A stretch of 64,000 nt of DNA from Spirochaetia bacterium (GTDB lineage: Bacteria; Spirochaetota; Spirochaetia; UBA9216). The position numbers and the translations under genes were made by a program. The stretch is taken from the NCBI GenBank assembly GCA_965140585.1, contig OZ223265.1, positions 320,001 through 384,000 on the forward strand. Direction: 5' to 3'. Numbering within the stretch: position 1 is the stretch's first letter; each line of letters starts with the position of its first letter. The notes beneath the pieces are model-generated. The model had not been told where the DNA came from and ran no database searches. It worked only from the letters and a program-made list of their open reading frames with translations. Shown one piece after another: positions 40,254 through 44,712 of this stretch.

Positions 40254-41027
40254 TCAGTTCAGATTATACAGATGAATCTGTTCGAGTCCGAGGAGGACAA
40301 GTTCGGGAACATTTTTGTCGAATAGGCCGAAGCCTGAATAGAGATCAGCATACATCCCGGTAGAGATAATCCTGCAGCCTTCGGAAGAAAAACACTCATC
40401 CTCCATACGGCCGGTAAGTTCCTTCAGCATTCCAAGGGTACCGTAATACAGTCCGCTCTGAATTCCGCCGGACACATCCCGGGCACAGACCTTTTCAACA
40501 GGCTGTATTTCAACCACCGGCAAGCCCGCAGTCCTTGTAGACAGGGCTTCCATAGCAACGGCAAGCCCGGGAATCAGGGTACCGCCGAGGTATTCGCCTG
40601 CCGAACTGACCGCGCAGAGGCTTGTAGCCGTACCGAAGTCAACGATAATCAGGTTTTCATCCGGATACAGTTTGGAAGCCGCCACAGCGTTTGCAATAAG
40701 ATCAGCCCCAAGCTCACGGGGATTTGAATACCTCAGCTTAAGCCCGCTTTTCACGCCGGCCTTCAGGCTAAGGGCCTGAATACCGAAATATTTCCTGATG
40801 CAGCCGTTCATAACCGCATTGAGCTCCGGCACAACCGAGCAGAAGACTGCATCGTCAACGTCATCCCGGCTTTTCCCGTTTGCAGCCAGCCAGCTCAGAA
40901 AAAAGAGTCCAAGCTCATCCTCCGTCAAGGCAGAAGCCGTACTCTTTCTGAAATCGGCTAGAAGCCTTCCTTCCTTCAGGAGTCCGCCGAAGATTACAGT
41001 GCTGCCGATATCAACCGCAAGAACCAT
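40254..41027 (-). CDS. coaX: Type III pantothenate kinase homolog with divergent substrate motifs
   Basis: AVDIGST, CSVVP, NPRELGADL, VDFGTATS, GGTLIPG, IQSG, LVLLGL. Start MVLAV at 41027. Confidence 0.8.
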   Translation of the reverse strand: MVLAVDIGSTVIFGGLLKEGRLLADFRKSTASALTEDELGLFFLSWLAANGKSRDDVDDAVFCSVVPELNAVMNGCIRKYFGIQALSLKAGVKSGLKLRYSNPRELGADLIANAVAASKLYPDENLIIVDFGTATSLCAVSSAGEYLGGTLIPGLAVAMEALSTRTAGLPVVEIQPVEKVCARDVSGGIQSGLYYGTLGMLKELTGRMEDECFSSEGCRIISTGMYADLYSGFGLFDKNVPELVLLGLEQIHLYNLN

Positions 41028-41192
41028 AACCCTTCCCTTCTTCAATATTCTTTATGTGTAAATTTAAAATTTGCTGATTACTGAATTTGTTCATTAGTAC
41101 CTGTCCTCCCCAGATCAAGTCTGAACCAATTAATAAGATATGATTTAAATTCTGCACATCATGGCCGCTGAACCAGTCGACCTGATTATCTC

Positions 41193-41221
41193 AATTTAAT
41201 TACTCCCGCTTGTATAGTCAA
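41193..41221 (-). promoter_or_regulatory. sigma70 promoter for coaX-pdxS-pdxT
   Basis: TTGACT-N17-TAAATT on the minus strand. Confidence 0.6.
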
Positions 41222-41238
41222 GAAGAGACGGCTATTTA

Positions 41239-41267
41239 TTGCCGGGATTGTTTTTCTGGTATATATT
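41239..41267 (+). promoter_or_regulatory. Putative sigma70 promoter of the RiPP-like operon
   Basis: TTGCCG-N17-TATATT, 9 nt before ATG 41277. Confidence 0.45.
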
Positions 41268-41276
41268 TGGAAACAT

Positions 41277-41489
41277 ATGAAAAAAATTACAGCCGTATTA
41301 CTAATGTTAATGCTAATAATCGGTTTTTCCCTTTCCGCCTGTAATCCCGATCCCGGGGCAGGTACCGACACGACCGATACCGACACGGAACAGGATTATC
41401 CGGATACTGATACTGACAGCGATACTGCAGCATCAGATTCAGATACTTCAGAACCTGACGACACTTCCGGAGCGTCTACCTCAGGCTGA
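41277..41489 (+). CDS. Small Asp/Thr/Ser-rich lipoprotein-like peptide; candidate precursor or substrate of the downstream modification enzymes
   Basis: Signal MKKITAVLLMLMLIIGFSLSA|C (lipobox). The 49-aa mature part has 13 Asp, 11 Thr, 7 Ser and no Lys or Arg. Confidence 0.75.
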   Translation: MKKITAVLLMLMLIIGFSLSACNPDPGAGTDTTDTDTEQDYPDTDTDSDTAASDSDTSEPDDTSGASTSG

Positions 41490-41541
41490 CATGCGTGGGG
41501 GCCTTATTACAGAAAACAGCAGTTTTTCATAAAACAAAAAT

Positions 41542-42711
41542 ATGATAAAGTCTTTTTGTAAAATGAAATTAAGCACAAGACTATCAGAGGAAGAGAATTT
41601 CATACTCAGTTTCTTTACGGATCGAAAAGACCGGACTGCAGAAGCCGGGATAAACACCGCCGATCTTGACTGGAATTTCATTTTTAAACTTCTTCAAACT
41701 CATAAACTGCTGAGAAGTTTCGCACATCTTATATTGGATGAGTCGGAAAGCAGACTTTCTGAAAGGACAATATCTGCATTGCAGCGGATTGATAAACTTG
41801 CCGCTGTAGAAAAAAAGATATATTTTGAAAAACTTGAACTTATAAAATCACTTCTTGAAAAAGCCGGTATCGAGCTCTGCCTCTTAAAGGGATTCAGCCT
41901 TGGCAGCGCCGAAGCCCCGCGGGATGTGAACGACCTGGATCTCCTGATAAAGGAGAAGGATATAGCGGAAGTACACCGGATTATGCTTGAAAACGGATTC
42001 ACCTACAAGGGTGATGACAGAAAGCTTTATCTGAAAAGCGAAGATCTGGACGGTAATATAGACTCCCTTAAAAACTGGACTAATCAGTTTGAATACCTCG
42101 CGAAAAAAGATGATCTGCTCACTGAAATTCACACCCACCCATTTGAAAGGAGCCGGGTTTACAGTTTCAACCTTGATAAACTATGGCTGCACAGCGACCT
42201 TCTTCTCGAACGGGCGGTTTATTCCAAAGATTTAGACTGCAGAATACTAACACCATCAGACAACCTCTGGCTTATCTGTATGCATAACGCTTTCAGGCGC
42301 TCGGTTGTAAAATATAAGTTTACACTACGGTACATTCTTGATATGAAATACCTGTGTTCACAGCCCGTTTTTGACTGGAAAGACTTTCTTGCGACTGCAG
42401 AAATCACCGACACTGTAGGTTTTTCGCTATTTTCACTGGAAATGCTTGAATACTTTTTTTCAGGAACAGTACCGGAAACAGTCATCATTACCCTTAAAAC
42501 AAGGCTTCGAAAAAGCGAACGTTTTTTCAGACTCATCCAGCATGGCTGCCTTCACTCAATGACCGAATCAAAGCGGACATTCACAGTCCTTTATAGCATA
42601 CTGCTGCCCTTCGTATACGGGGGACAGTTAAAAAACAAGGTGAAAAGCATCTTCATCATACATCGGATCTTTAAACCGCCGGTAAAACGCTTTTTCAGAG
42701 GCTCAGTCTGA
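41542..42711 (+). CDS. Nucleotidyltransferase family protein (NTP_transf_5-like)
   Basis: LLKG, PRDVNDLDLLI (DxD), EIH, H...LRYILDM...DW pattern. Start may be 41563. Confidence 0.85.
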   Translation: MIKSFCKMKLSTRLSEEENFILSFFTDRKDRTAEAGINTADLDWNFIFKLLQTHKLLRSFAHLILDESESRLSERTISALQRIDKLAAVEKKIYFEKLELIKSLLEKAGIELCLLKGFSLGSAEAPRDVNDLDLLIKEKDIAEVHRIMLENGFTYKGDDRKLYLKSEDLDGNIDSLKNWTNQFEYLAKKDDLLTEIHTHPFERSRVYSFNLDKLWLHSDLLLERAVYSKDLDCRILTPSDNLWLICMHNAFRRSVVKYKFTLRYILDMKYLCSQPVFDWKDFLATAEITDTVGFSLFSLEMLEYFFSGTVPETVIITLKTRLRKSERFFRLIQHGCLHSMTESKRTFTVLYSILLPFVYGGQLKNKVKSIFIIHRIFKPPVKRFFRGSV

Positions 42712-43166
42712 TGGCGGGAGCTGTTAATATTCTCTCCATGAAACCCGGCGACAGGGCGTGGGTCCCGGTACTTTCGGGAAGCATGGCGCCCGGATTTCTG
42801 CCCGGAGATGAAGTTGAGATTCTTATTCTTGACCGGATAGAGGCAGAATCTGAACTCAAGCCCGGTATGATTGCAGTATTTTATGAAAACGGCATTATTT
42901 ACTTTCATCGTATACTTTTTATAAATATATTTTCAGGAAGAATCTATCAGAAGGGCGACGGCAATCCCGAAGGCTCATGGATTTCAGCAGGCCGGATTAT
43001 AGGAAAAGTAACATCCGGCAGACGAAGCAGTCAGGACGGGAGTCTGGAATATGATGATGGAAGATGGACAACAGGGCAGGCCAGGCGACAGTTTATAAAA
43101 ACACAAATCATGGCCGTACTGCGATATGCTAAAGCTGTATCGAAAAGGATAATAAAGGGTGTTTAA
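42711..43166 (+). CDS. S24/S26 family peptidase (Ser-His type, no TM anchor)
   Basis: SGSMAPGFLPGD, FHRI, KGDGN, IIGKV; TGATG coupling to the upstream gene. Confidence 0.85.
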   Translation: MAGAVNILSMKPGDRAWVPVLSGSMAPGFLPGDEVEILILDRIEAESELKPGMIAVFYENGIIYFHRILFINIFSGRIYQKGDGNPEGSWISAGRIIGKVTSGRRSSQDGSLEYDDGRWTTGQARRQFIKTQIMAVLRYAKAVSKRIIKGV

Positions 43167-44001
43167 ATTCATGCTTGAGGCAGGCGAAAAAACAGTCTGC
43201 CTTGATTTCAGAAAAAGATGGCTCAGGGATAACATGCTTGAGTACTTCATGGGACAAAACAGCAGCAGCCTTCTCGATGTGCGGCTGAAAATAAGGCTGA
43301 TGGATCGGAATACTGAAATTGATCTTGTTCCCGATTCTCTTTTTCATGCAAAACGCCGGAATGGTGACGGATTCACCATCGAGGGCGGCATGATGTCGGG
43401 AATGTACGAGGCCGAAAGAAAAACAGCGGAACTTCTGATTCATCCTTTACTTGTTGAAACTTCCGCATCAAGAGTGTTTGAGCAGATTATCTATCAGGCT
43501 TATGTAACCGCCTGTGATGAATCATACGGCTTGATGCCGCTTGTGCATTCCAGCGGAGTTATAAAGGACGGCAGGGGATACCTGTTTGTAGGAGCCTCTG
43601 AAGCCGGCAAATCAACCGCCGCGGCGCTTTCTTCCGGTTATAAAATTATAAATGATGAAATATGCATCGCCGACATATCCAAAGAAGTCCCTAAGCTTGT
43701 TTCGACCCCCTTCAACGGGCTGTACAGAATCAAGCAGTCCGGGCGCGCCCCGCTTGCAGGTATTTTCATACTGAAAAAAGCGGACGAACACAGTGTTGCT
43801 CCGGTAAGCGGCGCGGCAGCGGTCAAACTAATCGCATCTCAGCTGATTCCGCCGGTGGGCCTGGGAGATATCATGCAGAGCGAGGATTACCTTAAACAGA
43901 TTGATATTGCCTCTGAATTATGCAGTAGAGTTCCGGTATACGAGCTGAGCTTCAGAAAAGACCCCGGGTTCTGGAAAGAGATTGAGCAGATTTCAGACTG
44001 A
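43159..44001 (+). CDS. HPr-kinase-like (HprK-related) peptide kinase
   Basis: VHSSGV, Walker A GASEAGKST, IINDE, STPFNG, PLAGIFIL. GTG start overlaps the peptidase stop. Confidence 0.82.
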   Translation: MFKFMLEAGEKTVCLDFRKRWLRDNMLEYFMGQNSSSLLDVRLKIRLMDRNTEIDLVPDSLFHAKRRNGDGFTIEGGMMSGMYEAERKTAELLIHPLLVETSASRVFEQIIYQAYVTACDESYGLMPLVHSSGVIKDGRGYLFVGASEAGKSTAAALSSGYKIINDEICIADISKEVPKLVSTPFNGLYRIKQSGRAPLAGIFILKKADEHSVAPVSGAAAVKLIASQLIPPVGLGDIMQSEDYLKQIDIASELCSRVPVYELSFRKDPGFWKEIEQISD

Positions 44002-44022
44002 GCCGAAAACAGGAGATTTTAA

Positions 44023-44304
44023 ATGAATACAGAGAATAAACTTCCCCTAACCGTAACTATAGCCTCCAACCTGAGCGAAAGAGATCTCGGTGATGAAATA
44101 GTGGTTGTGATATCAGGCAGTGATGAAATTCACACATTCAGGGAAACCGGTATGGAAATATGGAAGATGCTGGCAAAAGGCCTGAATACCGGAGATATTA
44201 TTTCCGCTATGATGAAAGATTACGGTGTTGAAGAAGAAGAGCTTGAGACCGATCTCAAGCTCTTTCTTGAAGACTGCAGATCGAAGAAACTGATAAATTA
44301 TTAA
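44023..44304 (+). CDS. PqqD-family RiPP recognition element (stand-alone RRE)
   Basis: 93 aa: RDLGDEIVVV...FRETGMEIWKML...YGVEEEELETDLKLFLEDCRSKKLI; AGGAG SD. Confidence 0.88.
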   Translation: MNTENKLPLTVTIASNLSERDLGDEIVVVISGSDEIHTFRETGMEIWKMLAKGLNTGDIISAMMKDYGVEEEELETDLKLFLEDCRSKKLINY

Positions 44305-44394
44305 ACAGATATAACCGCACCCCATACAGCTGATTTAAATACAGTCGTATTGAGTGCTGCAAAATCGGGTACAGCCGCAGAATACATCCAGCAG

Positions 44395-44712
44395 CTACTC
44401 CAGATAAAAAACTTCCTTAAGCGGAATGCTTACAGGTGAATTGTCCGGATTTGTATCCATAATATCGGCCATATATTCCCACCATCGGTGAACCACAGGA
44501 TTTGCACCCAGGTCCTGACTGCCGCCTTCACCGGAGGATTTCTGAACTGCAAAGAGCGTATTAGTCTCCTCATCCAGGAATATAGAATAATCAGAGACTC
44601 CCGCATCTTTGAGCAGTCCGACCAGTTCCGGCCAGATTGCATCATGCCGGGCCTTATATTCATCTGCCATACCAGGCTTCAGTTTCATCTTAAAGGCAAG
44701 CCTTTCTTTCAA
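44395..44712 (-). CDS. rhaM: L-rhamnose mutarotase
   Basis: AFKMKLKPG, EYKARHDAIWPEL, DYSIFLD, WWEYMADIM, EVFYLE. Confidence 0.95.
   Translation of the reverse strand: MKERLAFKMKLKPGMADEYKARHDAIWPELVGLLKDAGVSDYSIFLDEETNTLFAVQKSSGEGGSQDLGANPVVHRWWEYMADIMDTNPDNSPVSIPLKEVFYLE

Follow-up and report, generated by a model that had tools for sequence, protein, structure and literature searches.

A predicted acidic lipoprotein gene heads an LPP-like RRE/kinase operon in a spirochaete whose likely precursor peptide is encoded elsewhere in the genome

The window, a stretch of 64,000 nucleotides from the genome of a Spirochaetia bacterium (G000), carries a short operon in which a small gene for a predicted lipoprotein (hereafter the lipopeptide) is followed by genes for a nucleotidyltransferase, a peptidase, a kinase and a discrete RRE. 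It was compared with a congeneric genome (G001; record titled Spirochaetia) and with homologous clusters in other genera. The features that matter here, the last of them on another contig (C7) of the same genome, are as follows.

41239-41267, + strand: inferred sigma-70-like promoter candidate, TTGCCG-17-TATATT, 9 nt before the ATG
41277-41489, + strand: small acidic lipoprotein gene, 70 aa; signal peptide 1-21, lipobox Cys22, 48-aa D/T/S-rich low-complexity tail
41542-42711, + strand: PF14907 nucleotidyltransferase (LppN/PsmN-like), 389 aa; Pfam E 3.5e-25, dN/dS 0.116
42711-43166, + strand: soluble S26/archaeal signal-peptidase-like protease (LppS-like), 151 aa; TIGR02228 E 8e-8, below cut-off
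43159-44001, + strand: HprK/ScmC-like kinase (PF27840 tag), 280 aa; TIGR04249 E 1.2e-9, below cut-off
44023-44304, + strand: discrete RRE (PqqD), 93 aa; PF05402 E 9.4e-13
G000 contig C7, 163779-165985 (L026:9780-11986): YxxP-GVFGxY precursor and ABC exporter, kept in G001

The initial annotation had described the first gene as a lipoprotein with an LSA|C lipobox and an acidic, repetitive tail, and this description proved accurate. The lipobox Cys is residue 22 of the 70-aa translation, and the 48 residues after it (49 including the Cys) comprise 13 Asp, 11 Thr and 7 Ser with no Lys, Arg or His; the net charge of the mature part is -15. The tail holds the ten D-T/D-S dipeptides claimed for it (eight DT and two DS), against a mean of 4.9 in shuffles of the same composition, and ten or more occurred in 0.1% of 100,000 tail shuffles (p 0.001). 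By pattern, the lipoprotein signal is complete: MKK, a hydropathy of 2.46 over 19 residues, and LSAC, which fits the published lipobox consensus [LVI][ASTVI][GAS]C (PMC7857515). Lipobox calls were made by regular expression rather than by SignalP. Both Lgt and LspA are encoded in the genome.

The ORF is kept in G001 at the same place and with the same stop, at 90% amino acid identity, and divergence between the two genomes begins right after that stop. The dN/dS of the lipopeptide between G000 and G001 is 0.117 overall, 0.062 in the mature part (47 codons, Fisher p 4e-7, Nei-Gojobori, one genome pair) and 0.27 in the signal peptide (21 codons, not significant), which is its least conserved part. 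For the same genome pair, the four downstream operon genes range from 0.12 to 0.16, above the value of the tail. Because the ORF is kept in G001 and its dN/dS is low, comparison of the two sequences indicates that it is a real gene with a constrained tail, and its product is probably a lipidated, polyanionic peptide that heads a cyclase-less RRE/kinase operon. A stop-codon artefact, or a read-through fusion to the nucleotidyltransferase, was rejected, as the stop is common to G001 and more stops lie downstream.

The promoter proposed for this gene in the initial annotation, TTGCCG-N17-TATATT, fared less well. The site is present, but such sites are no more numerous than chance would give (13 found, 16.7 +/- 4.3 expected), which makes it weak as promoter evidence. 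In G001 the -35 hexamer is changed to TTGTAG and the -10 is kept. If the candidate is real, the 5' UTR of the lipopeptide gene would be very short. Between coaX-pdxS-pdxT and the lipopeptide gene, the intergenic DNA (41046-41276) is 95% identical in G001 though dS is ~0.5, and contains a direct repeat, CTGAACCA, at 41121 and 41168; possibly a regulator of the PdxR type acts here on the vitamin B6 genes. An Rfam scan of 40900-44500 returned two matches, both at chance level, and none in this intergenic stretch.

The lipopeptide ORF lies 52 nt ahead of the nucleotidyltransferase gene in the same orientation, with no terminator-like site between them. The NCBIfam matches of the operon proteins are all below curated cut-offs. 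The S26-like peptidase has Ser24, His66 and Asp83 and no transmembrane-like stretch (from motifs and hydropathy), and the kinase has His130, a Walker A motif at 145-153 and the acidic pair Asp166-Glu167. PqqD is the only protein of its kind found in the G000 genome, and its Tyr67, Asp77 and Phe81 are invariant in 15 homologues. There is no radical SAM ORF in the operon, nor does it have the ABC-2 pair that L028, L029 and L031 carry upstream of the nucleotidyltransferase.

Homologous clusters were sought with an alignment of the kinase and 55 of its 83 matches. The profile matched in 7/401 genomes of a phylum sample, 11/401 of a class sample, and 3/38 and 7/122 of two others (the samples overlap); a genome-contig search with the single kinase query gave a match in G001 only. 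An unrooted tree built from 25 kinase rows places G000 and G001 with P0004 and P0022 (support 91/82). Seventeen distinct non-congeneric loci were compared, carrying 12 genus labels, with five loci from one genus and two from another. Five distant metagenome loci (L015-L019; 28-37% over part of the kinase) were left out of this count; no small YxxP ORF was found in L015, L016 or L018. All 17 loci have a small YxxP-x9-GV[FY]G precursor gene 0.8-2.1 kb from the kinase gene. The nucleotidyltransferase is present in 13 (not seen in L021, L024, L030 and L034), the S26 peptidase in 15, the ABC-2 pair in 14 and a radical SAM enzyme in nine. The initial annotation had taken the lipopeptide as the precursor of the operon and had allowed that its absence next to homologous clusters would speak against this. 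Outside the genus that absence is what we found, as a short D/T/S lipopeptide occurs in 0/17 loci, the side in question being cut short by the end of the contig in L021, L030 and L047.

At L006, L025 and L032 the cassette adjoins apparent dTDP-rhamnose/polysaccharide genes, recognised by eye, which echoes the capsule-locus link reported for LPPs. In L033 (genome G529), which has no ABC-2 pair, the gene directly after the precursor (L033:4834-7773) encodes a DUF285-repeat lipoprotein of 979 aa that bears a D/T/S-rich tether. The same genome carries a cluster of a second, lasso-like type (L062, on G529:C35), also seen in spirochaetes at L058-L061, L063 and L065. Clusters of this type combine YxxP peptides bearing a different leader (two in L062) with kinase-like genes, a nucleotidyltransferase and an exporter of the subfamily described below for C7.

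Scanning G000 for the motif turned up a single precursor of this family, at C7:163779-163988, with a ribosome-binding site, and directly after it a gene for a 625-aa RiPP-type (MsbA-like) ABC exporter (C7:164108-165985). Both are kept in G001, the precursor at 91% conservation and dN/dS 0.077 and the exporter at 95% and 0.070. In G001 the pair lies ~808 kb from the kinase gene, and in G000 on a contig other than that of the operon. G000 belongs to a taxonomic family with 11 genomes, of which the same two carry the kinase and the precursor; this counts as one independent event. The C7 precursor matches no Pfam or NCBIfam model, and its closest full-length relative among the matches listed is P0141, at 53% identity. 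The source of P0141 is a single ENA contig of 61,105 bases, and that of the sister-clade kinase P0022 is likewise a single ENA contig of this size; this suggests that they are neighbours on one contig, although equal size is not proof. Seven of eight relatives of the C7 exporter in other genera lie beside nucleotidyltransferase, kinase-like, B2-like or YxxP genes (assigned partly by eye; L064 has none), and its best plasmid match has a nucleotidyltransferase and an HPr kinase nearby.

Could the RRE of the operon recognise this distant precursor? A complex modelled from the PqqD alignment and residues 1-40 of the C7 precursor scored 0.68, and the best of three controls scored 0.02; the mark for this score is reached by 116/157 solved complexes and 2/215 mismatched pairs. 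The runs share at least 90% of contacts, with a partner pLDDT of at least 53, and the modelled interface places precursor residues 2-15 on PqqD 34-46, 66-69 and 74-90. Because RRE-leader complexes have already been solved (9x8z, 5v1u), the pass of this model shows likeness rather than binding. The spacing of Y67, D77 and F81 in PqqD equals that of the Tyr pocket of LppB (Y60/D70/F74), while at the place of LppB Asn33 PqqD has another residue (Arg40 when counted ungapped). The lipopeptide offers no counterpart to such a leader. It contains no [YWF]xxP motif in either G000 or G001, shows no profile similarity to the family precursors, and has a signal peptide without Tyr, Trp or Pro. The proposals that it is the operon precursor and that its signal peptide doubles as an RRE-bound leader were thus not borne out, the genome having a YxxP precursor of its own on C7.

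The family to which the C7 precursor belongs was delineated with a profile of 15 precursors, which matched at least 171 proteins, 120 of them listed. The motif is at fixed spacing in 119 of the 120 matches listed, and the leader consensus is YxxPxIxSExIExGVFGxY. Counted ungapped from the leader Tyr, the register of LppA Ser3 is occupied by Tyr in 117/119 of the matches listed; if the alignment is instead anchored on the Phe, position 3 is Ser or Thr in 44/119 of those listed and Ile in G000. The Tyr is kept with or without a radical SAM enzyme or a nucleotidyltransferase, which we infer points to the kinase or to recognition. The core of the C7 precursor after this Tyr has a net charge of +2 and four His, and departs from the family consensus in having His directly after the Tyr, against Gly in 109/119 (among the 120 matches listed).

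Cys occurs within the last 12 residues in 9/9 precursors with a radical SAM enzyme and in 0/8 without one, although the 17 loci are related and not independent. The radical SAM/SPASM loci are L021, L022, L023, L024, L028, L032, L034, L047 and L049, where the Cys are mostly CC; precursors of the other loci have Cys-free ends that are mostly rich in Trp, His or Arg. Such a split hints at two subtypes of product. In source records, family members are named 'hypothetical', 'RiPP' or 'putative RiPP precursor', and a literature search, in which subscription journals were thinly covered, found nothing on the precursor family, on LPP-like clusters of spirochaetes or on Tyr phosphorylation by such kinases. 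That the precursor family is unnamed, that Tyr and not Ser stands at the LPP acceptor register, and that radical SAM genes accompany only Cys-tailed cores are new points.

Among known systems, the closest is that of the linear polyphosphorylated peptides (LPPs), described for the lppA-K-B-S-D-N cluster of Paenibacillus alginolyticus DSM5050 (Popov et al. 2026, PMC13381572), whose gene set consists of an RRE encoded as a discrete protein, an HprK-like kinase, a soluble archaeal-type signal peptidase, an NTP transferase, an MsbA-like exporter and a YxxP precursor (PMC13381572). The window operon has the RRE, the HprK-like kinase, the SpI-like peptidase and the NTP transferase; the MsbA-like exporter and the YxxP precursor are also present, but on C7, outside the operon. 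As in LPP systems, no B2 protease was found in the G000 genome. The system differs from LPPs in its phylum (Spirochaetota versus Bacillota), in being split over two loci, and in carrying an extra lipoprotein gene at the head of the operon. Most of its relatives use an ABC-2 pair and 9/17 add a radical SAM enzyme, again unlike LPPs. The leader reads YxxPxIxSExIExGVFGxY rather than the YxxPxVLxHQxIxFETxxS of LPPs, so that the full leader motif is missing, and the core Ser3 register holds Tyr in 117/119 listed precursors. Since the gene content agrees with LPP systems while the leader and Ser3 do not, the system is filed as an LPP variant, not as a member. The words 'lipoprotein' and 'Spirochaet' do not occur in the main text of the LPP paper (PMC13381572), whose supplements may list members outside Bacillota.

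The phosphorylated lasso peptides (paeninodin PadeK, pseudomycoidin PsmK/PsmN and BsfK/BsfB1) share with this operon a kinase with His, Walker A and acidic pair, a nucleotidyltransferase and a discrete RRE (PMC9266682, PMC10368454). The appeal of the initial annotation to a paeninodin-type acceptor holds as far as the paeninodin-type kinases go, which modify a C-terminal Ser; the lipopeptide instead ends in Gly in both genomes, and has neither a C-terminal Ser nor the leader motif. A lasso pathway was rejected, as the B2 protease (PF13471) was not found in the 98.5% complete G000 genome and no cyclase lies at either locus. Asn_synthase matches number two on C7 (C7:103783-104070 and 122132-123244, ~41 and ~60 kb from the precursor) and one, weak, on C3, with none at either locus; the two asparagine-synthase-like genes on C7 are probably not lasso cyclases, because there is no B2 protease in the genome.

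DAG-RiPPs (DybA/DybH; Chen et al. 2026, PMC13056109) resemble the window operon in placing a short lipobox-bearing peptide beside cytosolic modifying enzymes, and through them lipidated RiPPs are already a named class. The published examples, in contrast to the window operon, depend on an MNIO enzyme together with a Cys motif that is conserved, and the main text of that report describes neither an RRE nor a kinase (PMC13056109). Its authors expect DAG-RiPPs in leader-independent pathways (PMC13056109), which the RRE and peptidase set of the window is not. A further difference is that the lipopeptide does not co-occur with the enzymes (0/17 non-congeneric clusters), which have another candidate substrate. 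The SynChlorMet cassette and the HPr-rel-A system (TIGR04352/TIGR04353) likewise pair a kinase-like protein with PqqD, and the best NCBIfam match of the kinase is ScmC (TIGR04249), but every score lies far under its curated cut-off (for ScmC, 37.9 bits versus 125), and the operon has no radical SAM gene. Small lipid-anchored acidic proteins are also known from the PG1828 family (NF050142) and LytA (NF058647), to which matches are far below cut-off.

On these grounds, the C7 peptide rather than the lipopeptide is very probably the RRE substrate. It is likely that the modification system is split between two loci and that the lipopeptide is a genus-restricted extra, because every one of the 17 clusters has a YxxP precursor and none the lipopeptide, and because the G000 precursor on C7 docks on PqqD in the model. 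In the reading we favour, at a probability of about 0.5 for all its parts jointly, the lipopeptide is an unmodified membrane polyanion, and the operon enzymes process the YxxP-leader peptide of C7 in trans. PqqD would bind the YxxP leader, as the model suggests, and the kinase, by analogy with LppK and BsfK, would phosphorylate the precursor near the leader junction. The candidate site is the Tyr of GVFGxY, because it is the only near-invariant hydroxyl residue near that junction. The soluble S26 peptidase would then remove the leader with the help of PqqD, as LppS does, which acts only with the RRE present (PMC13381572); the nucleotidyltransferase may decorate the phosphate in the manner of PsmN, and the ABC exporter encoded beside the precursor (C7:164108-165985) would export the product.

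The choice of acceptor is the doubtful part of this scheme. LppK stacks phosphates on Ser3 only and modifies neither the S3T nor the S3Y variant (PMC13381572), and BsfK does not phosphorylate its S3Y variant (PMC9266682, PMC10368454); by analogy, this argues against phosphorylation of the Tyr. That the kinases of this family phosphorylate the Tyr of GVFGxY, a specificity absent from LppK and BsfK, is possible, although we consider it unlikely.

As for the lipopeptide, the favoured reading predicts that it is exported, receives its lipid at Cys22 and is not modified by the operon enzymes. It probably arose when the front part of a larger lipoprotein, signal plus tether, was split off and then domesticated. 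Its distribution is narrow. Of 401 genomes searched in the class, G000 and G001 alone were found to have the short version; the nine other matches there are weak, N-terminal and in open frames of 205-754 aa. A search of a 5.8-billion protein set gave one match (E 0.46), a search of 1.84 billion representatives one 260-aa lipoprotein (E 8.7e-4), and the ESM Atlas a best value of 0.85, with recognition below threshold; in every weak match, the matching part is the N-terminus of a long ORF. Tethers rich in D/T/S are a common feature of the 222 lipobox ORFs of G000, but the lipopeptide ranks first of them for D/T/S in the first 48 residues (0.65; the next 14, 0.42-0.52). Four other lipobox ORFs begin C-[ND]-P-D, two of which are also short. 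At the membrane, the lipopeptide might capture cations or, electrostatically, the mildly basic, His-rich C7 product. This is the speculative and weakest step of the scheme, and it recalls NisI, a LanI lipoprotein encoded with its RiPP, which it binds through a negatively charged domain (PMC4828448). The domains of NisI are folded, unlike the low-complexity tail of the lipopeptide, so that the analogy would be functional only. Against the favoured reading stands the constraint on the tail, which over the one genome pair is more conserved than the enzymes; this is unexpected for a plain tether and would fit a sequence-specific partner, possibly an enzyme.

A rather less probable alternative, though the strongest of the competitors, is that the C7 peptide is processed as described above while the lipopeptide, a domesticated lipoprotein fragment, merely shares the locus and has an unrelated role in the envelope, such as cation binding, a spacer or an acceptor for a host glycosylation system. 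The absence of the lipopeptide from all 17 other clusters implies that the system does not need it, and other short signal-plus-tether ORFs exist in the genome, at C4:227866 (79 aa, with a 539-aa ORF 17 nt later) and C4:229772. Sub-threshold matches to the small acidic lipoproteins PG1828 (E 0.013) and LytA (E 0.021) agree with such an origin. Against this reading, the lipopeptide gene and that of the nucleotidyltransferase are co-oriented and only 52 nt apart, nothing terminator-like separates them, and both genes are missing together upstream of the coaX orthologue of G006 (a single case). The genome search also yielded no PMT glycosyltransferase, and its only match to Wzy_C stayed below threshold; host O-glycosylation of the lipopeptide accordingly has no support. 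In the C4 region (G000:C4:227866-229990), two short lipobox ORFs of 79 and 72 aa flank the 539-aa ORF, an arrangement that looks like a split lipoprotein gene plus a truncated duplicate.

It is improbable, by a wider measure, that the kinase and/or the nucleotidyltransferase modify Ser/Thr of the lipopeptide independently of the RRE before export, yielding a phospho- or glyco-DAG-RiPP beside the C7 product. This possibility stays alive because the conservation of the tail is unexplained: purifying selection on the low-complexity sequence is strong, its D[TS] dipeptides are ordered (p 0.001) and its gene comes first in the operon. Modification of lipoprotein precursors by enzymes of the cytosol has a precedent in DAG-RiPPs (PMC13056109), BsfK is reported to accept Thr and to retain low activity without its RRE, and L033, likewise lacking an ABC-2 pair, encodes a D/T/S-tether lipoprotein right after the precursor. 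Yet an adjacent lipoprotein of such a type is found in only 1/17 other clusters, the kinases characterised in the cited reports stack phosphates on one positioned Ser, and LppK rejects Thr, whereas 8/10 of the dipeptides are DT. Marginally more doubtful still is the evolutionary form of this idea, in which the signal-plus-tether of a lipoprotein was recruited in this lineage to serve an LPP-type kinase/nucleotidyltransferase as a second substrate, giving a lipid-anchored surface polyanion that is multiply phosphorylated or phospho-glycosylated. The original proposal of the lipopeptide as operon precursor, with its signal peptide as RRE-bound leader and its tail phosphorylated at many D-T/D-S sites, is very improbable: the lipopeptide is conserved and is the only small precursor-like ORF at the operon in G000 and G001, but its signal peptide has no Tyr, Trp or Pro although PqqD keeps an LppB-like Tyr pocket spacing, that peptide shows the weakest conservation of all its parts (dN/dS 0.27), contrary to what an RRE leader would show, a canonical precursor lies elsewhere in the genome and beside 17/17 homologues, and the characterised kinases modify one positioned residue and not repeats.

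Processing of the C7 peptide in trans, with the lipopeptide as an unmodified polyanion, corrects the substrate call for this operon: the small ORF closest to the enzymes is probably not their precursor, which is likely to be encoded elsewhere in the genome. It would also extend LPP-like pathways to Spirochaetota, the one paper found on them being confined in its main text to Bacillota (PMC13381572). The conserved Tyr of a family of at least 171 members provides a direct test for a new kinase specificity, and clusters with and without the radical SAM enzyme or the nucleotidyltransferase are natural controls for the enzymes. The conserved lipopeptide, in turn, is a compact test of whether such cassettes touch surface lipoproteins; if it was indeed recruited as a second substrate, it would be a kinase-made DAG-RiPP beside a Tyr-modified secreted peptide.
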